In this document: positions 10,617-40,544 of the stretch, one piece after another | How positions within the stretch are numbered: position 1 is the first letter of the stretch | Layout: every line of letters starts with the position of its first letter | The notes under the pieces: model-generated | The model's database searches: none | Seen by the model: the letters and a program-made list of their open reading frames with translations, nothing else | Told to the model about the DNA's origin: nothing | From: Acidobacteriota bacterium | GTDB taxonomy: Bacteria > Acidobacteriota > Vicinamibacteria > Vicinamibacterales > UBA8438 | NCBI GenBank assembly: GCA_009861545.1 | Contig: VXME01000110.1 | Span: forward strand, 22,284-86,283 | Reading direction: 5' to 3' | DNA length: 64,000 nt | Translations under genes and position numbers: made by a program

Positions 10617-10737
10617 GCCGTCCACCTCCGCGAGGCGTGGAAATCGGGAGCGGTGCCCGAGCTCCGGACCGCGCACCGTCCTTCGCACCAGCGTACCACG
10701 GGCGGCCGGGACCCGGCGGCGGACCGCGGCGCCGGGA

Positions 10738-15106: not shown

Positions 15107-15251
15107 CCACGAGGCAGCCCCGCAATCGGACGCGCCCGAGACGCCCGCCGCCGCGGCCCCTGTTGCCCGCCCGAGTTCAGGCAAACTTCAGAAATCGCCG
15201 ACCGGCTGCCTCTTGCGGCTTCCGCGCGGTCTCCGCTATGGTCGAAGCTCG

Positions 15252-15554
15252 ATGATCACAGGAGGACCCATGCACGCAGGGCTCGCGCGACGCAGCCTTG
15301 GCCGGCGCATCCGGATCGCCGTTCTGGCGATGGCGCTGGTCGGTGCTGCATCCACCGCGACCGCCCGGCACGAGGAGCACGCAGCCGACCAGGACTGCGC
15401 GGTCTGCCAGTTCCGACACCAGCCCGCCGCACTCTCCGAGTCCGTGCAAGTCGGGTTCGCGGACGTCCCGAAGCCGTTCGAGCCGGCTCCCGCCGCCGCA
15501 TGGATCGCATCCGGCCACACCCGCCGTCTCCCGGCCCGCGCCCCACCCGCCTGA
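15252..15554 (+). CDS. small exported Cys/His protein, paralog P1 (DUF2946-like, ends ARAPPA)
   Basis: 100 aa with an N-terminal hydrophobic signal/anchor, then HEEHAADQDCAVCQFRH and a C-terminal WIASGHTRRLPARAPPA. It is a close paralog of 27771..28076. The alternative start 15270 has AGGAGG upstream. Confidence 0.7.
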   Translation: MITGGPMHAGLARRSLGRRIRIAVLAMALVGAASTATARHEEHAADQDCAVCQFRHQPAALSESVQVGFADVPKPFEPAPAAAWIASGHTRRLPARAPPA

Positions 15555-15788
15555 TTCCCGTCAACGCCGCAACCGTCGGGCGCGCAGCCATCGCCGCCGA
15601 GCCGGCGAGCCCGAGGTACATGTACGTGCGTCGCGGCGTGAGCGCCCTGCAATCCGACGCCGTTCAGGACGACGACGGCGTTCGGAACGTCTCCCGAGCA
15701 GTGCAGGGGGGCGAGCGCGGGCATGGCGTTTCACGCCACCGCGCCGCACAGGGTAGACGAAACCGTTGAGAACTTGGGGAGGGAAACG

Positions 15789-18092
15789 ATGTACCGATTG
15801 ATTGCGACATGTCTCGTGGGAACCGTGGCCGCGGCCGCCCTGGCCGGTACGACGGCCTCGGCCCAGGAGGCCGGCGCCGTACGCGGTACGGTGACGTTGG
15901 AAGAGAACGGGGAGCCCGTCCACGGCGCGGTGATCCTCGTGGTCGGCTCGGGCGCGTTCGCGCTGACCGACGAACAGGGAATGTTCGAGATCGACAACAT
16001 ACCCGCGGGCTCGTACGACGTCCTCGCGCAACGCGAGCACCTGACGGCGGGGCGGCAGTCGGTGACTGTCGACCCCGATGGGCCGGCGACGGTGGACTTC
16101 GTGCTCGGGCTCTCCCCGGTCCACGAGGACGTGACCGTCACCGCCTCGGTGGGCGGCACCGAGACGACATTCGAAGCCTTCAACGCCGTCACCACGATGG
16201 ACTCGTTCGACATCACCAGGGAGTCGGCCGGCAGCCTCGGCGACGCGCTCCGGAACGAGCCGGGGATCGCCAGCCGCAGCTTCGGCCCCGGGTCGAGCCG
16301 GCCGATCATCCGCGGCTTCGACGGCGACCGCGTGCTCATTCTCGATGACGGGCTCCGCACGGGCGACCTTTCCAGCCAGTCGGGCGATCACGGCGTGACG
16401 ATCGACCCGAACGGCGCCGAGCGCATCGAGATCGTGCGGGGACCGGCGACCCTGCTCTACGGGTCGAACGCGGTCGGCGGCCTCGTCAACATCATCACCC
16501 CGCACGAGAGCTACCGCGAGTCGCTCTTCGAGGGCGCGCGGGCGCAGTTCGGCACCAACGTGGGCAGCGCGAACGCCGAGGCGGGCACCACCGCCAGCCT
16601 GCAGTACTCGCAGAACAACGTGCTCGTCTGGGGCGGCGGAAGCATGCGGCGCACGGATGACTACGCCACGCCCGAGGGAGCCGTCGAGAATTCCGCCTCC
16701 GAGCTGACGAACGCGCGGGCCGGCCTCGGCTGGTTCGGCGACCGGGCCTTCGCCAGCGGCGGGCTCACGCTGGAGGACGGCCGCTACGGGGTGCCGTTCG
16801 CGGACGAGTTTCACCAGGCGCACGGCGTACACGCAGGGGAAGGTCCCAGGGAGACGGCGATCGACCTCGCGTCGCGCCGCCGCGTCGGGCGCTTCGACAT
16901 GGGCCTCCGCAACCTCGCCAACACCTTCATCGAGGGAGTGCGCGTGGCCCTGAACGTGATCGACTGGAAACACGACGAGCTGGAGATCGAGGACGGCGTC
17001 GAGCGCATCGGCACCCGGTTCACGAACCGGACCTACATCATGCGGGCCGACGTCGATCAGCGGCAGACCGAGCGGCTCTCGGGCAGGTTCGGGGCCTGGG
17101 CCCAGCTCCGCGATTTCGAGGCGGTGGGCGTCGAGGCGCTCGCGCCCCGGACCGACCAGACATCCTTCGCCGCGTTCGCCTACGAAGAGGTCGACTTCCA
17201 ACGTACCCGGCTGCAGTTCGGCGGGCGCGTCGAGCAGAACGATTACCGGACCGCGGGCCGCATGGTTCCCGACGCCCCCGGCGACGACCACGGTCACTCC
17301 CATGGTCTCGAAGTGCCCGACGCGCCCGATCGGCAGTTCCTCGGCGCGTCAGCCTCGGTGGGCCTGCACACCGACGTCGGCGCCGGCAGCGCTTTCGTCG
17401 CCAACCTCACCCACTCGCACCGCGCGCCGGCGCTCGAGGAGCTCTACAATTTCGGTCCGCACGTCGGCAACCTCGCCTTCGAGATAGGCAACCCGACGCT
17501 CGACGCCGAGACGACGCTCGGCGTCGACGTGAGCTTCCGCCACCAGGCCGGCCGCGTGCGCAGCAACCTGAACGCCTACGTCTACTCCATCGACAACTTC
17601 ATCTTCGGCGACCGCACGGGCGAGGTGGAGGACAACCTGCCGGTCTGGTACTTCATCCAGGGCGACAGCCGCTTCGTCGGCTTCGACGCCAAGAGCAGCG
17701 TGCGATTGGGTGGGAACGCCTGGGCGACGCTCGGCATCGGCTACGTCGATGCGGACCTGACCACGACCGGCGAGCCGCTGCCGCGCATCCCACCGTTGCG
17801 CGGGACCGTGAGCCTCGACGTCCCGTACGGCGGATTCACGTTCGGTCCGCAACTGGAATTCGCGGGGCAGCAGGCCAACGTGTTCCGGGACGAGACGGAG
17901 ACGAACGGCTACTCCATCGTCAACCTGCGAGCGTCCTACGTCTGGCCGCGGCAGCACACGGCGCACATCCTGTCGTTCACCGGCTACAACCTGACGAACG
18001 AGCTCTATCGCAACCACACCTCGTTCATCAAGGATCTGGCCCCCGAGATGGGCCGCGGGGTCCGGGTGAACTACTCGGTGCGGTTCTTCTAG
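15789..18092 (+). CDS. TonB-dependent receptor with CarboxypepD_reg-like N-domain and His-rich loops (TBDR1)
   Basis: Signal peptide, then VRGTVTLEENGEPVHGAVILV...GSYDV (carboxypeptidase regulatory-like). Plug motifs follow (RGFDGDRVLILDDGLR, IEIVRGPATLLYGSNAVGGLVNI), then a beta-barrel ending in F. His-rich inserts: DEFHQAHGVHAGEG and PGDDHGHSHGLEV. RBS GGGGAGGG lies before ATG 15789. Confidence 0.9.
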   Translation: MYRLIATCLVGTVAAAALAGTTASAQEAGAVRGTVTLEENGEPVHGAVILVVGSGAFALTDEQGMFEIDNIPAGSYDVLAQREHLTAGRQSVTVDPDGPATVDFVLGLSPVHEDVTVTASVGGTETTFEAFNAVTTMDSFDITRESAGSLGDALRNEPGIASRSFGPGSSRPIIRGFDGDRVLILDDGLRTGDLSSQSGDHGVTIDPNGAERIEIVRGPATLLYGSNAVGGLVNIITPHESYRESLFEGARAQFGTNVGSANAEAGTTASLQYSQNNVLVWGGGSMRRTDDYATPEGAVENSASELTNARAGLGWFGDRAFASGGLTLEDGRYGVPFADEFHQAHGVHAGEGPRETAIDLASRRRVGRFDMGLRNLANTFIEGVRVALNVIDWKHDELEIEDGVERIGTRFTNRTYIMRADVDQRQTERLSGRFGAWAQLRDFEAVGVEALAPRTDQTSFAAFAYEEVDFQRTRLQFGGRVEQNDYRTAGRMVPDAPGDDHGHSHGLEVPDAPDRQFLGASASVGLHTDVGAGSAFVANLTHSHRAPALEELYNFGPHVGNLAFEIGNPTLDAETTLGVDVSFRHQAGRVRSNLNAYVYSIDNFIFGDRTGEVEDNLPVWYFIQGDSRFVGFDAKSSVRLGGNAWATLGIGYVDADLTTTGEPLPRIPPLRGTVSLDVPYGGFTFGPQLEFAGQQANVFRDETETNGYSIVNLRASYVWPRQHTAHILSFTGYNLTNELYRNHTSFIKDLAPEMGRGVRVNYSVRFF

Positions 18093-18195
18093 GACCTTGC
18101 ACCGCAGAACGCAGCGAAGCGAAGTGCTGAGGCGCAAGGTCATGAAGCGGGGGGGATGGGCCGAAACGCCGAGCCTGCGAGGCGTTTCGGGGCGC
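18093..18195 (+). repeat. ~100-bp intergenic repeat element, copy A (second copy at 49551-49643)
   Basis: Positions 18102-18195 align with 49551-49643 (same orientation) with roughly 10 substitutions plus one indel by my manual alignment. There is an imperfect hairpin gaccttgcaccgcag...ctgaggcgcaaggtc and a perfect hairpin CCGAAACGCC-gagcctgcga-GGCGTTTCGG. Confidence 0.7.
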
Positions 18196-18303
18196 TAGGA
18201 GGCCCGGTTAACCGAGGGACGGGTCGTCTTCGGCCCGTCCAGGCGCTCGGCCGCTCGCCGGACTCCCTCCCCCGGCGGGCGGCCGGCGCTGTATCTTCAG
18301 TCG

Positions 18304-20913
18304 ATGCCCGCTCCGTCCCGGCAATCGAGCCCCGCTCTGCACCGGGCCCCGCTGTTCGCCCTCGTCTTCCTGTCCGGGGCGGCGAGCCTCGTCTACGAGG
18401 TGCTCTGGCTCAAGGAGCTGGGCCTGCTCTTCGGGAGTACCGCCTACGCCGCCTCCACCACGCTGGCCGTCTTCTTCCTCGGTCTGGCGGTCGGCGGGGC
18501 CGTGTTCGGCCGCTGGTCGCCGCGCCTGCGATCGCCGCTGCGCGCCTACGCCTGGATCGAGCTGGGGATCACGGTATCGGCCGCGGTCTATTTTGTCCTG
18601 CTCGAGATCTACTTCCAGCTCTACGGTCCGCTGTACGACGCACTGAGCGACCGCCCCGCGGCCTTCAACGCAGCCAGGACCGCCCTGGCGATGCTGGCGC
18701 TACTGCCGCCGGCCGCCCTGATGGGCGGCACCATCCCGGTTCTGGGTCAGCACCTCGTGCGGCGTCCGGACGAGCTGGGGCGCATCGGGTCGTTCCTGTA
18801 CGCGGTGAACACGCTCGGCGCGGCCACCGGCGCGTTCCTGGCCGGGTTCGTGCTGCCGCTCGCGCTCGGCTTCGACCGGGCGTATCTGCTGGCCATGGCC
18901 GTCAACCTCGCGGTCGCCGGTCTCGCCTGGCGGCTGGCCGGAGCCGCCGAGGCGCACGGCGCGCCCGCCCCGGAGCCGCCGGCCGACCACCAGCGTTCGC
19001 AACGGCCGGGGAAGGCCCCCGGCAGACGGCCGGCGGTTCCCGCCGCCGACACGGCCTGCCCCGCGTGGCTTCTGGCCACCGTCGCCTGCCTGTCGGGTGC
19101 GTTCGCGCTCGGGCTCGAGGTGCTCTGGACGCGGATGTTCGCGCAGGTTCTGCAGAACTCGGTCTACACCTTCTCGATCATCCTGGTGGTGTTCCTGGCC
19201 GCGCTCGCGACCGGTTCGGCGATCGCGAACCGCCTCTGCCGGGTACGGGCGGCGCCGGCGCAGGTCCTGTGGCTGCTGCTGACGCTGTCGGGCCTGGGCG
19301 TGGCCGTCATTCCGTTCGGGTTCCACGATCTGACCGGCGGCCTCGGCACGCTCGTGACCGGCGACGGATGGCTGCTGTACGTCTTCTCGATCTTCGCCAA
19401 CACGGCGCTGCTGCTGTTCGTCCCGGCGGCTCTGCTCGGCAGCGCGTTCCCGTACCTGCTGCGCGCGGCGGAGGGTTCGCGCGCCGAACCGGGCGCCATC
19501 ATCGGGAGACTCAATGCCCTGAACACCGGCGGCGCCGTGGTCGGGTCGCTGGCCGCCGGATTCGTCCTGCTCGGGAGCATCGGACTGTGGAACAGCATGC
19601 GGCTGTTCGCCTTCGGCTACCTCGTCCTGGCGCTGGCGGCCTGCTGGAACGGCTGGCGGACGCTCGGCGCGCGGCTCCTGCCGGCGGCGGCCACGATCGG
19701 CGCCGTGGTGCTGCTCGGCACGCTGGTCGACGCCTCACGCCTGCCGGTCGTCAACGTCAACACGGATCGCGGCGAACGGCTGATCGAGACATGGGAGGGC
19801 CCCGACGGCGTCGTCGCCGTCGTCGAGCGTCCCGGGAACCGGCGCATCAAGGTGAACAACTTCTACACGCTCGGCGGCACGGCCTCCATGGAGCACGAGC
19901 AGAACCAGGCCCTGCTGCCGCTGATGACGCACCCGCGGCCGCGCGCGGTCTTCATGCTGGGCCTGGGCACCGGCATCACCGCGGGAGCGGCCCTCCGGCA
20001 TCCCGTCGAGCGGCTGCTGGTCTGCGAGATAGCCGCCGACGTGATCGCGGCCTCCGCGGCCTGGTTCGACGTCCCGAGCGGCGGCCTCTTCAACGACCCG
20101 CGTGCGACGGTCCGCGCCTGCGACGCCCGCAATCACCTGCTGGGCACGACCGAGCGCTTCGACGCGATCATCGCCGACCTGTTCGTCCCGTGGCGGGCCG
20201 GCGTCGGGAACCTCTACAGCCGCGAGCACTTCCAGGCCTCCCGCGAGCGCCTCGCGCCGGGCGGCCTGTTCGTCCAGTGGCTGCCGCTGTACCAGTTGTC
20301 GCGGAGCGAGTTCGAGGTGGTCGCCCGCACCATGCTCACCGTCTTCGAGCAGGTCACGGTCTGGCGCGGCAGCTTTGCGGCGGAGCGGCCGGTCCTGGCG
20401 CTGATCGGCGCCTCCGGGCCGACCCTGCTCGACCCGGACGTGATCGACCTCAACGGGCAGTACCTGAGCGGCGGCCGCGAGTTGCCCCCGTCCACCTCGC
20501 TCGCGGTAACGCTCCCCTTCTATGCGGGGAACCTGTCGGCGGCCGACGGACTGATTCCGTCCGGGCCGATCAACACCGACGACCGGCCGCTCGTGGAGTA
20601 CCTGACGCCCGTGACGCAACGGGAAGAGCGCACCGGGGCGACCGAGTGGTTCAACTCCGCCGAGCTGGGCGCCTTCCTCCGGCGCCTCCACCAGCTCGTG
20701 CCGCCGGAGCGCGACCCGCACCTGAGCTTGCTGACCGCCGCGCAGCGCGACTTCGTCGTGGCCGGGCTCCGCTACCACGAAGGCGCGGTCGCCAGCCTGC
20801 TCGGACGGGAAGCCGACGCCGACGCGCATTTCGGCGAGTTCGCGCGGCGCATCCCCATCGAGTTCCGCCCGTCGATCGAGGAGGACGACGCGTCCGTGGA
20901 CATCGTCCCGTAG
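18304..20913 (+). CDS. fused polytopic membrane domain / spermidine synthase-like protein
   Basis: The N-terminal ~480 aa carry many TM helices (LFALVFLSGAASLVYEVLWLKELGLLFG...). A class I MTase/aminopropyltransferase-like core follows (VFMLGLGTGITAGAAL...CEIAADVI...FDAIIADLFVPW...LYSREHF...LAPGGLFVQWLPLYQL). Confidence 0.75.
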   Translation: MPAPSRQSSPALHRAPLFALVFLSGAASLVYEVLWLKELGLLFGSTAYAASTTLAVFFLGLAVGGAVFGRWSPRLRSPLRAYAWIELGITVSAAVYFVLLEIYFQLYGPLYDALSDRPAAFNAARTALAMLALLPPAALMGGTIPVLGQHLVRRPDELGRIGSFLYAVNTLGAATGAFLAGFVLPLALGFDRAYLLAMAVNLAVAGLAWRLAGAAEAHGAPAPEPPADHQRSQRPGKAPGRRPAVPAADTACPAWLLATVACLSGAFALGLEVLWTRMFAQVLQNSVYTFSIILVVFLAALATGSAIANRLCRVRAAPAQVLWLLLTLSGLGVAVIPFGFHDLTGGLGTLVTGDGWLLYVFSIFANTALLLFVPAALLGSAFPYLLRAAEGSRAEPGAIIGRLNALNTGGAVVGSLAAGFVLLGSIGLWNSMRLFAFGYLVLALAACWNGWRTLGARLLPAAATIGAVVLLGTLVDASRLPVVNVNTDRGERLIETWEGPDGVVAVVERPGNRRIKVNNFYTLGGTASMEHEQNQALLPLMTHPRPRAVFMLGLGTGITAGAALRHPVERLLVCEIAADVIAASAAWFDVPSGGLFNDPRATVRACDARNHLLGTTERFDAIIADLFVPWRAGVGNLYSREHFQASRERLAPGGLFVQWLPLYQLSRSEFEVVARTMLTVFEQVTVWRGSFAAERPVLALIGASGPTLLDPDVIDLNGQYLSGGRELPPSTSLAVTLPFYAGNLSAADGLIPSGPINTDDRPLVEYLTPVTQREERTGATEWFNSAELGAFLRRLHQLVPPERDPHLSLLTAAQRDFVVAGLRYHEGAVASLLGREADADAHFGEFARRIPIEFRPSIEEDDASVDIVP

Positions 20914-21001
20914 CGCCCCCGGGGCGCCCGCTCCGCGCGCGACGGCGCAGTTGCGGCAGCGCAGACGCCCCGTTCGACCAATCCCGTTCGCCGCCTCGGT
21001 G

Positions 21002-22432
21002 TCAGTCGGCTCCCCGCACCCGCCCGAGGCCGGCCCCGGCGCCGGCGATCACCAGGACGACCAGTCCGCCGAGAACGGTCAGCGGAACCGCTGCCCGCCC
21101 GGCGACCTCCGCGGGTTCCTCGTCCACGAACCGGAACGCCGGCACGTCGGGCAGGACGTCGGCGGTCATCTGCTCGCTGGCGAGGATCGCCGGCACGAAG
21201 AACTGCCGCCACTCTTCGGCGAAAGCGCGCACCTGCAACTGGAACCGGGCGAAGCGCGCGTCTCCCGTCCCCGCCGCGTCGATGAGCACCTCCTGGGCCA
21301 GCAGCGCCGGCGACAGGAAGCGGTAGCGGCGGACCAGGGCCAACTGGTCGGCGCGGCTGGCGTCGTGCACCGCCGACACCTCCTCCAGGCGCGTGTTCAC
21401 GGCGTCGGTGGCGGCCCAGGCGAGCGCGCCCAGGCCGGGCTCGTCGGCCACCACGCCACTGGCCATCTCCGGATGGTCTTCCAGGTAGCGGGCGAGCAGC
21501 TCGCTGCGGCGGCTCACGGCCTCGTTCGAGGCCTCGCGCTGGGCGGTGATCATCTCCACGCGCGACGGCAACGGGTGCAGCATGCCGGCCGCGATGTTCA
21601 CGGCAGCCGGCAGCACCACCACCAGCACGAGCCACGCGCCCACCAGGACCGTGGCGTTCCAGGCGGAGGACCGCCGCAGGCTGTTCACCCACGCCGCGAG
21701 CGCGAACCAGAACAGCGCGTACAGGACCACCGTGGCGCACCACAGGACCACCCGGCCGGCCGAGCCGAAGCCGCCGGTGGCCAGGATGCCGAGCAGCGAG
21801 ACCCCCGCGGCGAGACCGACCACGAGCAACGCCCGGAACGCCAGCTTCGCGCCCACCACGTCGCGGGCCGACACGGGCTGCGACAGCGTCAGGGCCAGCG
21901 TCCCCTGCTCACGCTCCTCCGAGAGGACGTTGAAGCTGAGGGCCAGCACGAGCAGCGGCAGCAGGTACACCGTCACGAAGGCCAGGTCGAATCGGCCCAC
22001 CAGGAGGTTGAGGGGGTTCTCCACTTCGCCGTTCTGCTGGAAGGTCGATTCGTTGGTGTAGATGCTGACGTCGTAGTGGTACGGCAGCAGGTCGCTCTGC
22101 CCGACCGCCAGCGCGGCCAGGGGGCCCGGCTCCAGCACCGCGGCGTGCGCGCCGCGGGCGCCGCCGAGGACGTTGGGGGCGCGGGGGTCGCGGAAGGGCG
22201 AGGATGGCTGTCCGCCGTTCGCGATGTCGGTCAGCTCCTGCTCGAGGGCGCTCACGCGCTCGGCGCTCCCGGTCCGCGCGGCCTCCACCGTCCGCTCCTG
22301 GAAGCGCTCCCAGGCCATGCCGTTGGCCAGCGCGTAGAGGAAGAGGACGGCGAAGACCGCGAGCACGATCCGCAGCGCCGGGTCCGCCGCCAGCAGGCGC
22401 CACTCGTTCCGCAGGACGGTACGCAGGGCCAC
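21002..22432 (-). CDS. ABC-2 type permease, DUF3526-like (second of pair)
   Basis: N-terminal TM, large extracytoplasmic segment, a cluster of 5 TMs, then a C-terminal soluble region and a final TM. It is a paralog of the upstream permease. Start set at GTG 22432, just after the upstream stop; the track ORF extends to 22495. Confidence 0.65.
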   Translation of the reverse strand: MALRTVLRNEWRLLAADPALRIVLAVFAVLFLYALANGMAWERFQERTVEAARTGSAERVSALEQELTDIANGGQPSSPFRDPRAPNVLGGARGAHAAVLEPGPLAALAVGQSDLLPYHYDVSIYTNESTFQQNGEVENPLNLLVGRFDLAFVTVYLLPLLVLALSFNVLSEEREQGTLALTLSQPVSARDVVGAKLAFRALLVVGLAAGVSLLGILATGGFGSAGRVVLWCATVVLYALFWFALAAWVNSLRRSSAWNATVLVGAWLVLVVVLPAAVNIAAGMLHPLPSRVEMITAQREASNEAVSRRSELLARYLEDHPEMASGVVADEPGLGALAWAATDAVNTRLEEVSAVHDASRADQLALVRRYRFLSPALLAQEVLIDAAGTGDARFARFQLQVRAFAEEWRQFFVPAILASEQMTADVLPDVPAFRFVDEEPAEVAGRAAVPLTVLGGLVVLVIAGAGAGLGRVRGAD

Positions 22433-22434
22433 GG

Positions 22435-23847
22435 CTACGCCACCTCCGCGCGCCGCACGCCGGCCGCCGCGGCCCAGACCGCGCCGGCGAGCCACAAGCC
22501 CAGCACCAGGAGCGACAGGATCCGGTTGTTCAGGACCCAGCCCAGCGTCGGGGCGTCGTACTGCAGGGGCGGCACCTCGGCCCAGAGGTCGGGTCCGGCG
22601 GCGTACGAGAAGTCCCCGCTACGGGAGTTCTCCGCCAGGTCGCCGTTCATCCGCCGCATCAGGTCCCTGCGGTACGTCTCGGCCGCGGTCGCGAAGTGCC
22701 GGTGCTGCTCGACGTCGGTGCCGGCCAGCCCCATCGACAGCGTGCGCACCGCCAGCAGCGGCGCCGCCACCGCGAGCGCCTCGTGGACGACACCCTGGCG
22801 CTCGAACGTGTCCCACAGCGCACCGTAGTTGCGGTCGAAGATCCGGTTGCCGAACTCCTCGCTCTCCTGCAGGTAGATCCCCACGTCGTTCACCGGCAGG
22901 TCCTCGGCCCGTTCCACGCCGTGCTCCGCGAGGAGGCTCTCGGTCAACGCCGCCCGGTCCGGTCGCTGGATGTCATCCACGCCGGCGGCCATCTCGCGTT
23001 CCAGCGTTTGTGCGAACTCGACCGCGGACGGCGTCGGATGGATCCACTTGGAGAGGTCCACCGCCGCGCGCGGGGCCACGAGCCCGTTCACCACCCACAC
23101 CGCCAACAGGACGACCAGCGCGGTGCGCGCCGAGCGGGCCCACGCCGACACGGCCAGCGACAACCCCACGAAGGCGGCGAAGTAGGCCAGGTAGACGCCG
23201 GCCAGGACTGCTCCCCGGGCCAGCGGAGACGCGGCCGGACCCGTGCTGCCGACGACGAGGGCGGCCGCGCCCACCAGCGCCGCCGGCACCAGCAGCAGCG
23301 CCAGCGCGCCGGCGATGCCCAGGGCCTTGCCCAGGGCCAGATCCGAGCGGCCGATACCGGTGGCCAGGAGCTGGCGCAGGGTCCCCTGCTCCCGCTCGCC
23401 GGCCAGCGCGCCGAAGGTCAGCAGGATGATGAGCAGCGGCACCAGGTGCTGCAAGACCCCCGCGGCAGTCAGGGCGCCGACGCGCTGGGCGGACGTCGCG
23501 TCCTGCGCCGGGCGCATGAGGAAGTCGTTCTGCCGGTGCGCCTCCAGCCACACCGACGTGCCCGTGTAGGGATCCACGCCCTCGTCGACGAACGACAGCG
23601 CCAGGCGGGGCTTGAACGCGTAGATGCCGTAATGGGCCGCCGAGTGCGGATTCTTCTCGCCCTGCGACTCCCAGTGATCGCGGGCGGTGGCCTGCGCGGC
23701 CGCAAGCTCCTCCTGCGCCTGGCGCGACTGGACCCAGCCGTGCCCCAGCGAGACCAGGAGAAGCGCGCCTACCACGGCCGCGCACCAGCGGAAGCGGCCG
23801 TCCCGAACCACGTCGGTGAACTCCTTGCGTGCGATGTGCTTGATCAT
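22435..23847 (-). CDS. ABC-2 type permease, DUF3526-like (first of pair)
   Basis: MIKHIARKEFTDVVRDGRFRW is a typical ABC-2 permease N-terminus. The central TM cluster contains EREQGTLRQLL, and a C-terminal domain ends in a TM. Confidence 0.7.
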   Translation of the reverse strand: MIKHIARKEFTDVVRDGRFRWCAAVVGALLLVSLGHGWVQSRQAQEELAAAQATARDHWESQGEKNPHSAAHYGIYAFKPRLALSFVDEGVDPYTGTSVWLEAHRQNDFLMRPAQDATSAQRVGALTAAGVLQHLVPLLIILLTFGALAGEREQGTLRQLLATGIGRSDLALGKALGIAGALALLLVPAALVGAAALVVGSTGPAASPLARGAVLAGVYLAYFAAFVGLSLAVSAWARSARTALVVLLAVWVVNGLVAPRAAVDLSKWIHPTPSAVEFAQTLEREMAAGVDDIQRPDRAALTESLLAEHGVERAEDLPVNDVGIYLQESEEFGNRIFDRNYGALWDTFERQGVVHEALAVAAPLLAVRTLSMGLAGTDVEQHRHFATAAETYRRDLMRRMNGDLAENSRSGDFSYAAGPDLWAEVPPLQYDAPTLGWVLNNRILSLLVLGLWLAGAVWAAAAGVRRAEVA

Positions 23848-23862
23848 CGTCAGCTCCCTCGC

Positions 23863-24627
23863 CTACTCGTGCATGTGCTCCAGATAAATGCGCTCGAGGT
23901 CGGCGTGGCCGATCTCGTCCGTGCTCATCTCCCTGACCAGGCGCCCGTGGCGCATGATGCCGACACGCGTGCCGGTCTCCTTGGCGCGAAACAGATCGTG
24001 CGTCGCCATGAGCACCGCGACGCCGCGGTCCCTGAGCCGCCCGAGCAGCTCCGAGAACTCGTTCGACGCCTGCGGGTCGAGGCCGGACGTCGGCTCGTCG
24101 AGCAGCAGCGCGTCGGCCTCCTTGGCGATGGCGATGGCTACGCCGACCTTCTGGCGCATGCCCTTGGAGTACTCGGACACCCGCCGCCGGACGGCGTCGC
24201 GCGGCAGGCCCGCGCCGACCAGGACGTCGGTGAGGTGCTCCGGGGCCAGCGATCCCCGCCCGCCCAGTGCGGCGAAGTACTCGAGGTTCTCCAGGCCGCT
24301 GAGGTTGCGGTACAGCATCACCTGCTCGGGGATGTAGGCCAGGCGTCGCTTGGACTCCAGCGGCTCGGCGGCGACGTCGAGGCCGGTCACGTGCACGCTC
24401 CCCGCCGTCGGCTCGAGGAACCCCAGAAACAGGTGGATGGTGGTCGTCTTGCCGGCCCCGTTGGGTCCGAGCAGACAGTAGATCTCGGATGGTCCGACGC
24501 GTAGGTCGAGGCCCGCGACGGCCTCCACGTCGCCATACCGCTTGGACAACGCCTGCGCCTCGAGCACGGGGTTCGAGGCGACGGCGGTGGAGGCGGGGCG
24601 GGCATCGATCGGCGCGACTTCGCTCAT
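23863..24627 (-). CDS. ABC transporter ATP-binding protein (ABC-2/NosF-like)
   Basis: Walker A GPNGAGKTT, signature YSKGMRQKV, Walker B LLLDEPTSGLD and the H-loop ATHD are present. Confidence 0.9.
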   Translation of the reverse strand: MSEVAPIDARPASTAVASNPVLEAQALSKRYGDVEAVAGLDLRVGPSEIYCLLGPNGAGKTTTIHLFLGFLEPTAGSVHVTGLDVAAEPLESKRRLAYIPEQVMLYRNLSGLENLEYFAALGGRGSLAPEHLTDVLVGAGLPRDAVRRRVSEYSKGMRQKVGVAIAIAKEADALLLDEPTSGLDPQASNEFSELLGRLRDRGVAVLMATHDLFRAKETGTRVGIMRHGRLVREMSTDEIGHADLERIYLEHMHE

Positions 24628-24748
24628 GGTCTCGACAGGAGTCCCGGTGGATCACCAGGGCTCCCCCCTCCAAAGGAAAAGAACGGGCCGGTGCGCCGAC
24701 GGCGTCGACGCGACTACGGAGCCAGAGAGTCGGGATGTGGTCGCGGCG

Positions 24749-25018
24749 TCAGGCGGGCGGCGCCCGCGAGCCGTGCCCCTCGACCTCCGCGGGGCGGGCA
24801 TGCCCCGGCGCATCCGCACAGGGGTTGCGGACAGCGCATGGGTCGGGGTGATCGAGGACGCCGGAAGCGACAGGCGGCGAACCCTGCACGTGGCACAGCA
24901 CGCACGTGCCGTCCCGCGCCTCCGCCTCGTCGTGGAAATGAAGCGTCGTCGCGAGAGCCGGCAGCGCGAGCGCGAGAACGGCGCCCCACTGCAACAGCGT
25001 CGATCGGCCTCGCCGCAT
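24749..25018 (-). CDS. small exported Cys/His protein, paralog P5 (ends SRAPPA)
   Basis: 89 aa with a signal peptide (LLQWGAVLALALPALA), then HFHDEAEARDGTCVLCH, two further Cys and a C-terminal GHGSRAPPA. It sits between TBDR2 and the ABC ATPase. Confidence 0.6.
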   Translation of the reverse strand: MRRGRSTLLQWGAVLALALPALATTLHFHDEAEARDGTCVLCHVQGSPPVASGVLDHPDPCAVRNPCADAPGHARPAEVEGHGSRAPPA

Positions 25019-25163
25019 TGTGTCTTGTAGCGTGTTCCCGCGAATCCGTCAAGGCGCCACGCGCCGGGGAGCGTTTAGCGCGGCCGCCCGCCGGGGAGGG
25101 AAATGTCCGGCGGGCGGCCATGCGCACGGACGGGACGCAGGCGTCCCGACCGACCCTCGAGCA

Positions 25164-27521
25164 CTAGTGGAACCGCACGGCGTAGCTCGCCCGGACCCCG
25201 CGGCCCATCTCGGGCGCCAGGTCCTTGATGTACGAGGAGTGGTTCCGATACAGCTCGTTCGTCAGGTTGTAGCCCGTGAACGACAGGATGTGCGCCGTGT
25301 CCTGCCGCGGCCAGACGTACGACGCCCGCACGTTGACCAGGGAATAGCGGCCCGTCTCGGTCTCGCCCCGGAACACGTCGGCCTGCCGCGCCGCGAACTC
25401 CAGTTGCGGGGTCAGCGTGAACCCGCCGTAGGGGATGTCGAGGTCCACCGTGCCTCGCAACGGCGGAATCCGCGGCAGGGGCTCCCCGGTCGCCAGCCGC
25501 GCGTCGACGTACCCGAGGCCGAGCGTCAACCAGGTCTGTCCGGCGAGCCGGGTGCTGCCGCGTGCGTCGAAGCCGCGGAAGCGGCTGTCGCCCTGCAGGA
25601 TGTTGTACACCGGCAGGTTGTCCGCCACTTCGTCGCTGCGGTCGCCGAAGATGAAGTTGTCGATGTCGTACACGAAGAAGTTCAGTGCGCCACGGACGCG
25701 GTCGCCCCGGTGCCGCAAGCTCAAGTCCAGTCCGAGGGTGGACTCGGCATCGAGATCCGGGTTGCCGACGTCGAACGAGAGCGTGCCGACGTGCGGGCCG
25801 AAGTTGTACAGCTCCTCGATGGCCGGGGGGCGGTGGGAGCGGGTCAGGTTCGCGACCAGGGCGTTGCCGGCGCCGAGGTCCGCGTGGAGTCCGACCGACG
25901 CGGATGCACCCGCGAAGTCGCGGTCGCGGGCGTCGGGCGCCTCGAGCACGCCATGGTCGTGCCCCTCGTGGCCATCGTCGTCATCGTCGTTCGCAAATGC
26001 GCCGGTACGCTCCGCCACGCGGTAGTTGTCACGGTCGACGCGACCGCCGAACTGCACGCGTAAGCGCCCCAGGTTCAGCTCTTCGTAGGCGAAGGCCGCG
26101 AAGGACGACAGGTCGGTCCGCGGCGCCAGCGCCTCGAAGCCCGCGGCTTCGAAGTCCCGTATCTGCGTCCAGGCGCCGAACCTCCCCGACAGACGCTCCG
26201 TCTGCCGCTGATCCACATCGGCGCGGAGGATGTAGACCCGGTTGTCGAAGCGCGTGCCGACGTTTTCGTTCCCGCCCTCTATTTCCAGCTCGTCGTGGCC
26301 CCAGTCGACGGCCTTCAGGCTGAGTCGCACCCCCTCGACGACGCGGTTGGCAAGGCCCTGGAGGCCGACGTCGAAGCGCATCGCGCGACGCTGCCAATCG
26401 AGCGCGATGGAGGTCGCGCCGCCTTCATCGACCCCGTGATCGTCCCGGTGCCCGCCGGCATCCACTTCGTGGTGTCCGTGGAACTGCTCGGCGAACGGCA
26501 CGCCGTAACGGCCGTCGTTCAAGGTCACCCCGGCGCTCGCGAAGAGCCGGTCGCCCGACCAGCCGACACCGGCCTCCGCGTTGGCCGACTCGGTGGCGGA
26601 GTTCTGGACGGTCCCCAGGGGCGTGGCGTAGTCCCCCGTCCGCCGCGTGCTGCCGCCGGCCCAGTAGCGCACCCCGTTCCGCGCGTGCTGCAGGCCGACG
26701 TTGGTGCCCGCCTGCGCGTTCGCGCTCCCGAGGTCGGCGTTCAACTGTGCCCGCGTGCCCTCGAGCAGTGACGCGCGGCTGCTCTCGTGGGGCGTGATCA
26801 CGTTCACGACCCCGCCGACCGCGTTCGAGCCGTACAACAACGTCGCCGGCCCGCGCACGATCTCGATGCGCTCCGCGCTGCTGGGGTCGACCGTGACGAC
26901 ATGGTCGCCGGAATTGTTCGACAGGTCCCCGGTGCGGACGCCGTCCTCCAGAATCAGCACCCGATCGCCGTCGAAGCCGCGGATGATCGGCCGGCTCGCG
27001 CCGGGGCCGAAGCCGCGGACCGCAATGCCCGGCTCGTTCCGCAGGGCGTCTCCGAAACCGGGGACCGACTCTCTTGCGATGTCGAACGAGTCCACCGTGG
27101 TGACCGCGTTGAAGGCCTCGTACGTCGTCTCGGCTCCACCCGCCGAGGCGGTCACGGTCACCTCCTCGTGCACGGGCGAGAGGCCCAGCACGAAGTCCGC
27201 CGTCACCGTCCCGCCGGGTTCGACGGTCACCGTCTGCCGGCCCGCGGTCAGATGGTCCCGCTGCGCGAGAACCTCGTACGAGCCGGCCGGCACGCGGTCG
27301 ATCACGAAACTGCCCTGCGTGTCGGTCAGCGCGAAGGCGCCGGAGCCGACGACGAGGATCACCGCGCCGCTGATGAAGTCCCCGTTCTCTTCCAGCGTCA
27401 CCGTCCCGCGCACGACGCCGCTCTCCTGCGCCGGCAGCGGCGCTACGGTCGAAGCCGTGGCAACCGCGACCGCTCCAAGACATCTCGCAATCCACCGGTA
27501 TCTGCGCATCGCTCTTTGCAT
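25164..27521 (-). CDS. TonB-dependent receptor with CarboxypepD_reg-like N-domain and His/Asp-rich loops (TBDR2)
   Basis: Paralog of TBDR1 with the same block structure (VRGTVTLEENGDFISGAVILV..., RGFDGDRVLILEDGVR, IEIVRGPATLLYGSNAVGGVVNV). Inserts: EQFHGHHEVDAGGHRDDHGVDEGG and NDDDDDGHEGHDHGVLE. Start at ATG 27521 with GGAG upstream; the track ORF extends to 27644. Confidence 0.9.
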   Translation of the reverse strand: MQRAMRRYRWIARCLGAVAVATASTVAPLPAQESGVVRGTVTLEENGDFISGAVILVVGSGAFALTDTQGSFVIDRVPAGSYEVLAQRDHLTAGRQTVTVEPGGTVTADFVLGLSPVHEEVTVTASAGGAETTYEAFNAVTTVDSFDIARESVPGFGDALRNEPGIAVRGFGPGASRPIIRGFDGDRVLILEDGVRTGDLSNNSGDHVVTVDPSSAERIEIVRGPATLLYGSNAVGGVVNVITPHESSRASLLEGTRAQLNADLGSANAQAGTNVGLQHARNGVRYWAGGSTRRTGDYATPLGTVQNSATESANAEAGVGWSGDRLFASAGVTLNDGRYGVPFAEQFHGHHEVDAGGHRDDHGVDEGGATSIALDWQRRAMRFDVGLQGLANRVVEGVRLSLKAVDWGHDELEIEGGNENVGTRFDNRVYILRADVDQRQTERLSGRFGAWTQIRDFEAAGFEALAPRTDLSSFAAFAYEELNLGRLRVQFGGRVDRDNYRVAERTGAFANDDDDDGHEGHDHGVLEAPDARDRDFAGASASVGLHADLGAGNALVANLTRSHRPPAIEELYNFGPHVGTLSFDVGNPDLDAESTLGLDLSLRHRGDRVRGALNFFVYDIDNFIFGDRSDEVADNLPVYNILQGDSRFRGFDARGSTRLAGQTWLTLGLGYVDARLATGEPLPRIPPLRGTVDLDIPYGGFTLTPQLEFAARQADVFRGETETGRYSLVNVRASYVWPRQDTAHILSFTGYNLTNELYRNHSSYIKDLAPEMGRGVRASYAVRFH

Positions 27522-27770
27522 CGCTTCTCCAACCCTCTCCAATCTCGTACCCAACGGTTTCGTCGATCCGGCGCCCGTCGCCGCATGGGACGGCGCGTGC
27601 CGCCGAGCCGCCGCCGGACACCGGGGAAACTCCTCCGGGTGCACCGGCGGTCGACAAGCCGAAACGGCGTCCAGGCACGGCCGATGCGACGGCGCGCACG
27701 CATTGCCTCGGACGCAGGCGAACTCGCGGGCTATCGCGGCACGACAGGCGAACGGAAATTGCGAACGGGA

Positions 27771-28076
27771 CTAGGCGGGCGGAGCGCGGGCGGGGAGGCG
27801 GCGCAAATGACCGGATGCAATCCAACCGCCGGCGACGACCTGTTCGAGCGGCTGCGGGACGTCCGCGAATCCGATCTCCAGGGATCCGGACGGTTCGGCA
27901 GCCGGCTGGTGCCGGAGCTGGCAGACTGCGCAGTCATGGTCCGCTGCGTGGTCTTCGTGGCAGATGGCCTCTGCGGCCGTGGCGCCGGCCAGCACGAGCG
28001 CCAGGAAGACGATCCAGGCGCGCCAACCGGAACTACGTGCTGCGAGCCCCGCGTGCACGGGGTCTCTCTGGGCCAT
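27771..28076 (-). CDS. small exported Cys/His protein, paralog P2 (ends ARAPPA)
   Basis: 101 aa. HEDHAADHDCAVCQLRHQPAA...IGFADVPQP...WIASGHLRRLPARAPPA is near-identical in these blocks to P1. It is the first gene of the minus-strand TBDR2 operon. Confidence 0.7.
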   Translation of the reverse strand: MAQRDPVHAGLAARSSGWRAWIVFLALVLAGATAAEAICHEDHAADHDCAVCQLRHQPAAEPSGSLEIGFADVPQPLEQVVAGGWIASGHLRRLPARAPPA

Positions 28077-28139
28077 AAGCTGTCGACGCTAGCAGAGATC
28101 GGCCCCAGGTGGCAAGGGGCGCGACCCGACGGCCGCGCC

Positions 28140-28169
28140 TTGACTCCGGCTCGCCTTTGCTTCTTCAAT
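28140..28169 (+). promoter_or_regulatory. candidate sigma70-like promoter for the plus-strand cluster (TTGACT-N18-TTCAAT)
   Basis: TTGACT lies at 28140-28145 and TTCAAT at 28164-28169, in the 99-bp divergent spacer. The -10 ends 6 nt before ATG 28176, so the transcript would be leaderless or translation starts at the next ATG (28194). Pattern only. Confidence 0.25.
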
Positions 28170-28175
28170 AGGCGG

Positions 28176-28460
28176 ATGGCGTCCTCGAAGCGCATGACGG
28201 CGATGGGTGCGGCACTCTTCGTGGTGCTCGCGCTCGCGTCGGTCGGCGTCGCGCTCCACGAGCACGACGCCGACGTGCAGTCCGCCGCTCACGCGGATTG
28301 CGACGCCTGCCATATCCGACACCTGTCGGTAGTCGAGACCGACGGTACGCCGGCGCTGCCGACGCCGGCTCTCGTGGCCCACGGCGTCGTTTCCGCCGGC
28401 CCGGATGGCGAGCGCGCCGCGGTTCTCGGCATCCTTGCCACGCGCGGACCGCCCGCGTAG
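28176..28460 (+). CDS. small exported Cys/His protein, paralog P3 (ends TRGPPA)
   Basis: C-terminal 94 aa of track ORF 26787..28460: signal peptide (MGAALFVVLALASVGVA), LHEHDADVQSAAHADCDACHIRH and a C-terminal ILATRGPPA. Confidence 0.6.
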   Translation: MASSKRMTAMGAALFVVLALASVGVALHEHDADVQSAAHADCDACHIRHLSVVETDGTPALPTPALVAHGVVSAGPDGERAAVLGILATRGPPA

Positions 28461-28597
28461 CCGCCCCGTCGCACTTCCCCGCGACACCCCGTATCGCACG
28501 ATCGTCGGTTGTCGGGCTCGGCGTCGGCACAGGCACGGACGCCGGTGCGCGCCCCGCCCATCCGGAAATCAACGCTCGCACCTGGAGGAACACTGCC

Positions 28598-29545
28598 ATG
28601 TCGATTCTTCGCAGAGAACAGCTCGCTTCCCGCTGGATGGCGGTCGCCGCGCTGCTGGCCCTTTGCAGCACGGGCCCGGCGACCGTCGCGCACGCTCAGG
28701 ATGCTGCCGACCAGCCCTTCATGGCGGGGGCGCCGCTCGACCTGTCGTCGAACGCCAAGACCTACGGCGGCTTCCGCTTCGCCGAGAGCATGGCCTACGA
28801 CGAAGCCCGCGACCTGTACGTCGCGGTCAACGCCGGGATCGCCCAGAACGTCATTCCGAACGACGGCTACATCTCGCTGATCAACCCCGACGGCAGCGCC
28901 CACACGCTGAAGTGGATCGGCGTCAACCGGAACGGCCTGACGTTGAACCACCCCCTCGGCAGCGACATCATCAACGGCCTGCTGTACGTGGCCGACATCA
29001 ACGTGGTGCGCTGGTTCGACATGGAGAGCGGCGAGCCGCGGGGCAGCGTCACCGTCGAGGACGCGCAGCGCTTCAACGACATCGAGGTCGCCGAGGACGG
29101 GACCATCTGGGCCTCGCAGACCGGGACCGAGGAGAGCGGCACCTGGCGCCTGTACCGCATCGGACCGGACGGCGACTCGTCGGTCGTCGTCGAGGGAGCC
29201 CCGCTGGCCCGGCCCAACGGCGTAGCCTTCGACCCGGACGGCAACGTCGTCGTGGTGAACATCAACGACAACGCGGTGCTCACGTTCTCGCCCGACGGCG
29301 AGCTCGTCAAGACCGAGCACGCCGTGGACGGCGGCAACGACGGACTGGTGATTCTGGACGACGGCACGAAGTACGTCTCCAGCGTCAGGATCGGCACCGT
29401 CTCGCGCATCCGTCCCGGAGAAGAGGCCGAGGTCGTGGCGTCCGGCATCCCGAGCGCCGCCTCGATGTCCTACGACTCGAAGCGGAACCGGCTGCTCATC
29501 CCGATGAACAACTGGAACGCCATCACCATCGTCGAACTCGACTGA
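28598..29545 (+). CDS. periplasmic six-bladed beta-propeller protein (SGL/NHL-like)
   Basis: Start at ATG 28598 inside track ORF 28298..29545. Signal peptide (WMAVAALLALCSTGPATVAHA). Blade-like repeats include LYVAVNAG, LYVADINVV, DGTIWASQ, PNGVAFDPDGNVVVVN and DGLVILDDG. Confidence 0.65.
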   Translation: MSILRREQLASRWMAVAALLALCSTGPATVAHAQDAADQPFMAGAPLDLSSNAKTYGGFRFAESMAYDEARDLYVAVNAGIAQNVIPNDGYISLINPDGSAHTLKWIGVNRNGLTLNHPLGSDIINGLLYVADINVVRWFDMESGEPRGSVTVEDAQRFNDIEVAEDGTIWASQTGTEESGTWRLYRIGPDGDSSVVVEGAPLARPNGVAFDPDGNVVVVNINDNAVLTFSPDGELVKTEHAVDGGNDGLVILDDGTKYVSSVRIGTVSRIRPGEEAEVVASGIPSAASMSYDSKRNRLLIPMNNWNAITIVELD

Positions 29546-29596
29546 TCGGGACCGCGAACGCCGGTCCCCAGACGCAACCATCGACCCGCCGGAACC

Positions 29597-29881
29597 ATGA
29601 AGAAGCCGAGCCGGCCGCTCGCGTTCGCAGCGCTGGTGCTGACGTGCGTCCTGCTGCCGGCCGGCTCTTTCTTCCACGAACACGACGAAGGAGACGCGAC
29701 CGGCGGCGACCACCACAACTGCGTCATCTGCTGTATTGCGCACTACGCCGCGATAGAGGCCCGCGCAGCGCCGACGGCGTCGACGCCCGAACTCACGGCG
29801 CTCGCTGCAGCGCGGACGCACTACCGAATCGGCCCGCGCACCGCGCTCGACATCCGACCCACGCGCGGACCGCCCGCGTAG
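29597..29881 (+). CDS. small exported Cys/His protein, paralog P4 (ends TRGPPA)
   Basis: 94 aa with a signal peptide (LAFAALVLTCVLLPAGS), then FHEHDEGDATGGDHHNCVICCIAH and a C-terminal IRPTRGPPA. It lies directly upstream of TBDR3. Confidence 0.65.
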   Translation: MKKPSRPLAFAALVLTCVLLPAGSFFHEHDEGDATGGDHHNCVICCIAHYAAIEARAAPTASTPELTALAAARTHYRIGPRTALDIRPTRGPPA

Positions 29882-30015
29882 CACCTCCCCCTTGCCGCGT
29901 CGACCCGGACGGTCCCCGAGGACCATCCGCGTGTCGGCCGTTCGAATGACGAAATCGGCGGGAGGCTCGCCGGCCGGCGTGGCTGACGAGTGACCGCCGC
30001 GGAGGTGGACTCGGG

Positions 30016-32466: not shown

Positions 32467-32479
32467 ACCGGAGGATCCG

Positions 32480-37270: not shown

Positions 37271-37334
37271 CACGGGCGTAAGGGGGCCTTCGACGCAACC
37301 CGGGAACACGAGCAGTTCGAGACTGGAGACGACC

Positions 37335-39626: not shown

Positions 39627-39739
39627 AGACGGGGCCTCGGGCGGTCGCCGCGCAGGCAGGTATCCTGATGCAGCAATCGTCGTCTGGGCCCAGCGCGAAG
39701 TTCCTGCGACGGCGGAGAACGACCTGACACCCGCGAACC

Positions 39740-40465: not shown

Positions 40466-40544
40466 GACCGTGGAACCGCCGACACGTCCGTTCTCCTCCG
40501 GGAAGTCCCGCTCGGCGCCGGGCCGCATCGCAGAGTGAAGCCCC

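Follow-up and report, generated by a model that had tools for sequence, protein, structure and literature searches.

We analysed a 64,000-nucleotide stretch of DNA from an Acidobacteriota bacterium of the order Vicinamibacterales (contig VXME01000110.1, positions 22,284 to 86,283; called the window below and numbered from its first letter), in which five small open reading frames (ORFs), P1 to P5, lie within 15 kb among genes for TonB-dependent receptors (TBDRs) and associated transport proteins. According to the analysis, each of the five ORFs most likely encodes a leader peptide that acts in cis, senses metal and arrests translation, in the manner of CruR and CutF (DUF2946). The original prediction had described five small exported proteins of 89-101 aa with a CxxC pentamer each and the C-terminal sequence RAPPA (P1, P2, P5) or RGPPA (P3, P4) followed directly by the stop codon, and their positions, strands, lengths and motifs were confirmed. 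They are listed here with the gap, defined as the number of residues between CxxC and the Arg of R[AG]PP:

15252-15554, plus strand: P1, 100 aa from ATG 15252; signal/anchor, HEEH, CAVC, gap 43, RAPPA-stop
27771-28076, minus strand: P2, 101 aa; signal/anchor, HEDH, CAVC, gap 44, RAPPA-stop
28176-28460, plus strand: P3, 94 aa; signal, HEHD, CDACH, gap 44, RGPPA-stop
29597-29881, plus strand: P4, 94 aa; signal, HEHDE, CVICC, gap 44, RGPPA-stop
24749-25018, minus strand: P5, 89 aa; signal, HFHDE, CVLCH, gap 42, RAPPA-stop

Some details of that description had to be corrected. An H-x-H-[DE] motif, proposed for all five, is found in P3, P4 and P5, and P1 and P2 carry H-E-[ED]-H instead; the sensor segment of the family has the pattern H..H-x7-10-CxxC-x0-3-H, with two His, two Cys and usually one more His, with both Cys of CxxC invariant or almost so in every alignment. 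P1 and P2, said to be nearly identical in three blocks, share 62% identity. The gene that follows is a TBDR gene for P1, P2 and P4, whereas P5 is followed by genes of an ABC-2 (ATP-binding cassette) transporter and P3 by an SGL/NHL beta-propeller gene. A second in-frame ATG of P1, at 15270, would give a protein of 94 aa and is preceded by a perfect AGGAGG Shine-Dalgarno sequence at 15260-15265; P1-class orthologues likewise have a second in-frame ATG behind AGGAGG, and most of them are called from it (94-95 aa).

All five ORFs look like coding sequences for exported products. Their third-position GC content is 0.78-0.85, which matches the coding expectation. Since the window has 70% G+C, a composition that readily produces spurious ORFs with many Arg, Ala, Pro and Gly residues, we ran a chance control, in which ORFs of at least 60 aa with an exact R[AG]PPA end numbered 0.04 on average and 1 at most in 100 Markov-2 simulations, against 6 in the window. 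The sixth of these, an RGPPA-ending ORF at 58135-58317 (plus strand), was rejected as a chance product; it lacks CxxC and lies within a 982-aa gene on the opposite strand. The N-termini of P1 to P5 carry +2 to +5 charges followed by a 15-aa hydrophobic core with a Kyte-Doolittle value of 1.9-2.7. An AlphaFold model built with 25 homologues has only an N-terminal helix (residues 7-41), in agreement with the signal-like N-terminus, no secondary structure past residue 56 and a mean predicted local distance difference test score (pLDDT) of 59.9. Hydropathy, the basic N-region and the modelled helix thus back the N-terminal signal or anchor of the original prediction, and the mature part of the products is predicted to be disordered.

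That the ORFs belong to a DUF2946-like family which has diverged, multiplied locally and lies beside TBDRs of the metal type is supported by matches to PF11162 (DUF2946), with scores of 20.9 (P4), 16.2 (P1), 11.3 (P5) and 8.3 bits (P2), all below the gathering cut-off of 23.7 bits. The four matches are in the correct register, covering about positions 47-117 of the profile, its C-terminal two-thirds, and ending at its last position, 117, at the C-terminus of the protein. Among 138 family representatives, 44 match PF11162 at E<=0.01, the best of them at 1.8e-6, whereas any other Pfam family is matched by at most one of the 138. P1 also gave a weak match to the CzcI model (E 0.027), and a tblastn search of plasmids with P4, seeking canonical DUF2946 genes, returned no match. 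From the PF11162 matches, we regard the small-ORF family as a peripheral branch of DUF2946.

A profile built from the five sequences retrieved 446 proteins at E<=1e-3, all unnamed and none with a precomputed Pfam domain, among which orthologue groups were found for the P1, P2, P3 and P5 types. R[AG]PP plus one residue ends 118 of the best 120 of these 446 homologues, and in the same best 120 the gap is 44 residues in 108, 42 in eight and 43 in two. When 1.84 billion representatives were searched exhaustively, 182 clusters were matched at E<=1e-3, almost all of them about 90-100 aa long; among the matches listed, R[AGS]PP lies no more than 8 residues from the end in 136 of 150 representatives at 50% identity, with a gap of 42-45 in 130 of these 136. 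In GTDB genomes we found 63 family loci, all in Acidobacteriota and mostly in Vicinamibacterales, in which the orthologues keep frame, spacing, motif and gene order. Length, frame and stop position are preserved in more than 100 orthologues, the median ratio of nonsynonymous to synonymous substitution rates (dN/dS), computed for the final 66 codons in 42 orthologues of the P1/P2 class, is 0.37, and in this class Arg, Ala and the first Pro are fixed as amino acids while their codons drift synonymously. Loss of the frame or of the C-terminal motif in relatives, which the original prediction had named as grounds for giving it up, was not seen; the orthologues keep frame and motif and show purifying selection.

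Several species retain the full order of the locus, with the CobN-like gene, TBDR3, a small ORF, the SGL gene and a small ORF on one side, and a divergent small ORF, TBDR2, a small ORF, the ABC gene and two permease genes on the other. A second recurring unit consists of exonuclease III, a small ORF, TBDR1 and a gene for a fused MFS (major facilitator superfamily)/spermidine synthase protein. In some Vicinamibacterales genomes, arrest-type ORFs stand in tandem: four loci (L008, L010, L016 and L021, at about 9990-11100) lack TBDR2 and have a P2-like ORF directly before a P5-like ORF, followed by the ABC-2 genes.

A constraint at the nucleotide level falls on the second Pro codon of R[AG]PP, which in the window occupies the following positions:

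15546-15548, plus strand: second Pro codon of P1
27777-27779, minus strand: second Pro codon of P2
28452-28454, plus strand: second Pro codon of P3
29873-29875, plus strand: second Pro codon of P4
24755-24757, minus strand: second Pro codon of P5

In 105 unique small ORFs (those of the window plus loci L001-L063), this codon is CCC in 100, CCU in three, CCG in one and CCA in one, whereas the long genes of the window favour CCG (402 CCG versus 191 CCC). At the first Pro of the same ORFs all four codons are used, and the rare CCA and CCU are enriched. The near-invariance of CCC in a setting that prefers CCG argues for selection on the codon, its tRNA or the local RNA at what is presumed to be the A-site codon during arrest, and it offers a simple new handle on the tuning of RAPP arrest.

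Four of the five ORFs follow closely on candidate promoters:

15213-15242, plus strand: P1 promoter-like element, TTGCGG, 18 nt, TATGGT; 9 nt before ATG 15252
28086-28115, minus strand: P2 promoter-like element, TTGCCA, 18 nt, TAGCGT; 9 nt to the ATG
28140-28169, plus strand: P3 promoter-like element, TTGACT, 18 nt, TTCAAT; 6 nt to the ATG
25024-25052, minus strand: P5 promoter-like element, TTGACG, 17 nt, TACAAG; 5 nt to the ATG

The P1 element is kept in orthologues as TTGCCG...TGCTAGCGT, the P3 element, which stands back to back with that of P2, is nearly invariant in 16 orthologues, and the P5 element is conserved as well, indicating that P5, the ABC gene and the permease genes form a transcription unit of their own. 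A generic consensus scan reported no promoter, so it is conservation that marks these -35/-10 elements. The distances of 5-9 nt between the -10 element and the ATG suggest that the transcripts of P1, P2, P3 and P5 are leaderless or nearly so. No conserved promoter-like element was found for P4 itself, which starts 51 nt past the SGL stop codon and thus appears to be an arrest-type ORF inside the P3 operon. The four promoter regions contain no Fur/Zur-like AT-rich boxes or palindromes, the only hairpins being GC hairpins after the TBDR2 and SGL stop codons, and no Rfam family, the cobalamin riboswitch included, was matched in the whole window. A distant Vicinamibacterales locus (L053, at about 9925-10000) has an AT-rich upstream region with GGATAATTTATTGATAGC, which resembles a Fur/Zur box; nothing similar is present in the window.

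Each small ORF is separated from the next gene by a lengthy intergenic stretch:

15555-15788, plus strand: P1 to TBDR1, 234 nt; length not constant in orthologues; first ~80 nt C-rich, resembling a Rho utilization (rut) site
27522-27770, minus strand: P2 to TBDR2, 249 nt; length not constant in orthologues
28461-28597, plus strand: P3 to SGL, 137 nt; 124-147 nt in orthologues
29882-30015, plus strand: P4 to TBDR3, 134 nt; 129-137 nt in orthologues
24628-24748, minus strand: P5 to ABC ATPase, 121 nt
29882-29888, plus strand: CACCUCC, directly 3' of the P4 stop codon, non-coding
24677-24700, minus strand: GC hairpin (24700-24687 plus a T run) with a U/C-rich tract, terminator-like, between P5 and the ABC ATPase gene

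Across all classes, C (0.35-0.41) exceeds G (0.29-0.30) in the 80 nt that follow the stop codon, and this stretch resembles the region in which the cruR rut site was mapped (PMC9426467). The junction between P4 and TBDR3 has the clearest design. The CACCUCC sequence does not vary among the 11 distinct orthologues and complements the TBDR3 Shine-Dalgarno sequence, which is GGAGGUG (30001-30007) in seven orthologues and GGAGG in the other four. Two hairpins between CACCUCC and GGAGGUG are kept by compensatory changes, double-sided in 6 of 28 predicted pairs, and according to base-pair probabilities the TBDR3 Shine-Dalgarno pairs with the footprint of the stalled ribosome at 0.35, compared with 0.155 when the footprint was shuffled. 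These features fit an unmasking switch of the SecM/CutF type. The same test was weakly positive for the TBDR2 Shine-Dalgarno (0.305 versus 0.221 shuffled), and in the fold predicted for the window sequence the region of the TBDR2 Shine-Dalgarno is paired with P2 at its 3' end, with 0.65 of the Shine-Dalgarno pairing going to the footprint against 0.34 when the footprint was shuffled. A conserved hairpin, GUCGCA...UGCGAC, lies just past the P3 stop codon. The hairpin and tract between P5 and the ABC ATPase gene, which could be an attenuator, are followed 3' of the hairpin by a purine-rich GGAGGGGGGAG block; 13 orthologous intergenic regions have an equivalent hairpin, with a purine-rich GGAGGGAGGAG block after it, some 45 nt upstream of the ATG. 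As a further element of this region we considered a mini-ORF of 10 codons that overlaps the start of the ABC gene (AUGA); it occurs in some orthologues, is absent from the window and from L003, and was rejected.

The genes downstream of the small ORFs point to metal uptake, and the following were annotated:

15789-18092, plus strand: TBDR1, ZnuD-like TonB-dependent receptor; its start was moved to ATG 15789, which follows GGGGAGGG
25164-27521, minus strand: TBDR2, ZnuD-like TonB-dependent receptor with His/Asp-rich loops
23863-24627, minus strand: ABC-2 ATPase, downstream of P5
22435-23847 and 21002-22495, minus strand: two ABC-2/DUF3526 permeases, after the ABC-2 ATPase
28598-29545, plus strand: SGL/NHL-type beta-propeller with signal peptide, downstream of P3
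30016-32466, plus strand: TBDR3, BtuB/haem-receptor-like, downstream of P4
32480-37270, plus strand: CobN/Mg-chelatase-like protein, 1596 aa, after TBDR3

Among TBDR models, ZnuD was the best for TBDR1 (E 4e-65) and TBDR2 (E 1e-62) over their full length. Their scores of 220.6 and 212.9 bits against this model (NCBIfam NF038289) are far below its curated cut-off of 950 bits, and both receptors are therefore ZnuD-like and not ZnuD equivalogues. In a comparison with the PDB, ZnuD (4RDR) was the best relative, matched at E 1.5e-40 versus E ~1e-10 for the copper receptor OprC, and His/Asp-rich loops are visible in the sequences of both receptors. TBDR2, followed by the ABC-2 ATPase and two permeases, has the same architecture as znuK (a TBDR) and znuGHI (an ABC-2 ATPase and two permeases), which mediate Zur-regulated zinc uptake in Caulobacter crescentus (PMC4176598). 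The Caulobacter genes are controlled by Zur boxes, whereas no such box was seen at this locus and a small ORF heads each unit. The ZnuD-like receptors, the ZnuGHI-like transporter and the His/Cys ligand set, no less suitable for Zn(II) than for Cu(I), make it probable that P1, P2 and P5 sense zinc rather than copper. Downstream of P4, genes for TBDR3, the CobN-like protein, a PQQ/Kelch beta-propeller, a 241-aa protein and a MotA/ExbB-family protein run in the same direction (30016-41153); this stretch resembles hmu-type receptor/CobN-like loci. After TBDR1, an 869-aa fusion of an MFS-like membrane domain and a spermidine synthase domain is encoded at 18304-20913 (plus strand), a position kept in L018, L032, L036, L038 and L043.

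The original prediction held that DUF2946 proteins have no known function. This view is outdated, since two members, CruR and CutF, have been characterized as regulatory upstream ORFs. CruR (Bp2923) of Bordetella pertussis, a DUF2946 protein, is encoded by an upstream ORF whose RAPP motif arrests the ribosome; copper sensed at its CXXC relieves the arrest, whereupon Rho stops transcription ahead of bfrG, a TonB-dependent transporter gene (PMC9426467). In more than 2000 DUF2946 members, CXXC and the C-terminal RAPP are 45 +/- 1-2 residues apart, and the published genes encode an export signal, head operons and are set apart from a downstream TonB-dependent transporter gene by a lengthy intergenic stretch (PMC9426467). 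The ORFs of the window resemble CruR in that a small exported protein heads a TonB-dependent transporter operon, CXXC and RAPP are separated by a fixed distance (45 in CruR, 42-44 here, on average one residue below the published DUF2946 spacing), a long GC-rich intergenic region with a C>G stretch follows (162 nt in CruR, 121-249 nt here) and little structure is predicted for the mature part. They differ from CruR in their length (89-101 aa versus 145 aa), in the stop codon placed one and not three residues past PP, in the RGPP of two copies, in the additional HxH/HxxH and the His after CxxC, in their sub-threshold Pfam scores, in a ZnuD-like zinc-type cargo in place of the Cu-regulated BfrG/PepSY, in the presence of five copies in 15 kb with one inside an operon, and in the phylum, Acidobacteriota.

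In CutF of Rhodobacter capsulatus, with a CxxxC and a PPP motif and dependent on EF-P, stalling occurs with copper and induces a detoxifying oxidase, because the stalled ribosome melts a stem-loop that hides the ribosome-binding site of the next gene; TonB-like neighbours and probable non-copper members were already pointed out in that work (PMC9973294; bioRxiv 10.1101/2025.02.05.636593). Like CutF, the small ORFs have a Sec signal, a metal motif with Cys and, at the C-terminus, an arrest motif of the proline type, and the pairing of CACCUCC with GGAGGUG between P4 and TBDR3 resembles the melting of its stem-loop, but the intergenic regions here are much longer and the uptake cargo leads us to expect the opposite polarity. 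Of the known arrest motifs, RAPP and RGPP are the strongest and tolerate the widest range of contexts; in a purified system CruR stalls the ribosome with its two Pro codons occupying the P and A sites, and a GTDB-wide survey found RAPP/RGPP upstream ORFs before TonB-related genes across Gram-negative phyla (PMC12992588). ApdA, ApdP, ApcA and SecM-type RAGP peptides, which monitor Sec/YidC activity by pulling force and lack a metal site (PMC10951233, PMC12992588), are likewise small exported proteins encoded upstream of a regulated gene, with this core arrest tetrapeptide close to their C-terminus; the ORFs described here differ in having a His/Cys site at a fixed distance from the arrest point.

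From these parallels, we propose the following working model. P1, P2, P3 and P5 would each have a promoter of their own that yields a leaderless or near-leaderless message, and P4 would be translated within the P3 operon. The ribosome would make the signal or anchor, then the metal site of His and CxxC (with a further His), then 42-44 residues, and at R-[A/G]-P-P formation of the bond to the second Pro (with an almost invariant CCC in the A site) would be blocked, leaving the ribosome stalled two codons ahead of the stop codon. Because 42-44 residues separate CxxC from the arrest site, the metal site should at that moment be just out of the exit tunnel. Covering the stop codon and the first intergenic bases, the stalled ribosome would keep the downstream gene on, either by denying Rho the C-rich stretch, as in CruR, or by melting the pairing of an anti-Shine-Dalgarno sequence at the 3' end of the ORF or just after its stop codon with the downstream ribosome-binding site, as in SecM and CutF; the second route is clearest for P4 and TBDR3, and both may act together. 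Metal bound to the nascent His/Cys site would cause folding or pulling that ends the arrest, the ribosome would terminate, and the uptake genes would be turned off. The CruR polarity, in which metal switches the genes off, is assumed here because the cargo is uptake machinery. Reportedly, folding of the zinc-dependent ADR1a zinc finger near the tunnel exit released SecM arrest in an engineered construct.

Several observations weigh against this model. Arrest, the metal, polarity and the output route are all read across from homologous systems, the polarity is taken over from CruR when CutF works in the opposite sense, and the case for zinc consists of the cargo and the His/Cys ligand pattern. 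In the PF11162 scan all five ORFs stayed below the gathering threshold and P3 had no match. P4 is not the first gene of its operon, unlike the published DUF2946 genes, and the C>G skew after the stop codons is modest. Pairing of the Shine-Dalgarno sequence with the footprint equalled the shuffled control for TBDR1 (0.18 versus 0.18) and was negative for the SGL and ABC genes. A ranking by duplex energy placed the best anti-Shine-Dalgarno segment within -30 to +6 of the stop codon in 53 of 89 cases, and this ranking is confounded, because the C-rich codons of R-A-P-P-A complement any G-rich Shine-Dalgarno. RNAalifold, applied to the P1/P2 intergenic regions of eight orthologues, found only short local helices and no persuasive shared fold; a 26-sequence alignment of these regions was too gapped to use. 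Given the disagreement among the junction tests, we infer that the output route may differ between the copies.

The original prediction had assigned the small proteins another role, in which the exported mature peptides are periplasmic or outer-membrane partners that hand metal or ligands to the receptors and PPA is a docking or sorting signal. The signal-like N-termini, the His/Cys-rich acidic mature parts and the strict adjacency to transporter genes with conserved synteny agree with such a role, and a second, post-translational function of the released peptide would be compatible with all our results. The genes after P3 and P5 encode a propeller protein and an ABC ATPase and not receptors, and the mature part is predicted to be disordered. 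What is invariant is instead the arrest module (R[AG]PP, the fixed distance to CxxC, the stop one codon on and the A-site CCC), and hand-off explains neither this spacing, stop position and codon constraint nor the promoters and the disorder. Together with the long intergenic regions, these features led us to prefer a nascent-chain regulator over a periplasmic protein. We know of no sorting signal of the PPA form, and this part of the proposal is unsupported. The characterized members of the family cannot be detected as mature proteins and work solely in cis (PMC9426467; bioRxiv 10.1101/2025.02.05.636593). We consider hand-off unlikely as the main function of the five ORFs.

Much less probable still is that the small ORFs encode precursors of metallophores of the RiPP class (ribosomally synthesized and post-translationally modified peptides), exported and then re-imported via the adjacent receptors. 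Small Cys/His peptides beside TBDRs and an ABC transporter would suit such a pathway, and P1 has a very weak NCBIfam match to the cyclophane RiPP precursor AmcA, but at E 0.09 this match is at noise level, the N-terminus is a Sec signal and not a RiPP leader, the locus contains no maturase, radical-SAM, MbnB/C-like or protease gene, and conservation peaks at the extreme C-terminus with a fixed spacing, unlike a leader/core pattern. We ruled this explanation out on the missing maturase genes and the wrong pattern of conservation. That the ORFs are untranslated, being part of an RNA element or having arisen by chance in a genome of 70% G+C, is extremely improbable: such genomes do yield many spurious ORFs of this composition, and one RGPPA-ending example occurs in the window, but five ORFs stand against 0.04 expected per window, the orthologues retain frame, length and stop with dN/dS 0.37 and synonymous drift at invariant residues, and the ORFs of the window have coding-like GC by codon position and no Rfam match.

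The class of mechanism favoured here, metal-sensing translational arrest, has precedents in CruR, CutF and the arrest peptides with RAPP or RGPP, and a catalogue of RAPP/RGPP upstream ORFs ahead of TonB-related genes already exists. New are the diverged, sub-threshold Acidobacteriota branch, its zinc-type cargo, the five copies in a single 15-kb locus with one inside an operon, the leaderless heads, the anti-Shine-Dalgarno sequence abutting a stop codon and the CCC constraint. Five 'hypothetical proteins' gain a specific, testable regulatory mechanism, and the DUF2946/CruR design would extend below the Pfam threshold into Acidobacteriota and be tied to zinc-type rather than copper-type cargo. 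The locus also forms a natural comparison set, with one arrest module combined with the metal sites HEEH/CAVC..H, HEHD/CDACH, HEHDE/CVICC and HFHDE/CVLCH and with different intergenic designs, which could reveal the determinants of metal specificity and of output by Rho or by unmasking of the ribosome-binding site. More speculatively, and with considerable doubt on our part, paralogous arrest peptides and not a Zur-type repressor might be the main sensor layer for uptake of zinc and other non-copper metals in Vicinamibacterales, with five His/Cys-distinct sensors each gating its own unit, one of them within an operon, an arrest that depends on the CCC codon or its tRNA, and output by unmasking through the post-stop anti-Shine-Dalgarno sequence.

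Some remote members of the family, on contigs too short to reveal much of their context, occur in other surroundings. On a metagenomic contig (L066), two family ORFs flank a 193-aa gene. In L064 (1763-2549), a member with an HHHHH motif precedes a gene for an OEP/TolC-like outer-membrane efflux protein and not a receptor gene, a context that agrees with the published link of DUF2946-like genes to resistance-nodulation-division (RND) efflux operons. Elsewhere in the window, paralogous DUF1552 (HXXSHH) proteins are encoded at 45025-46410 (plus strand) and 50909-52249 (minus strand), with glycosyltransferase, FkbM methyltransferase and cyclase genes between them.

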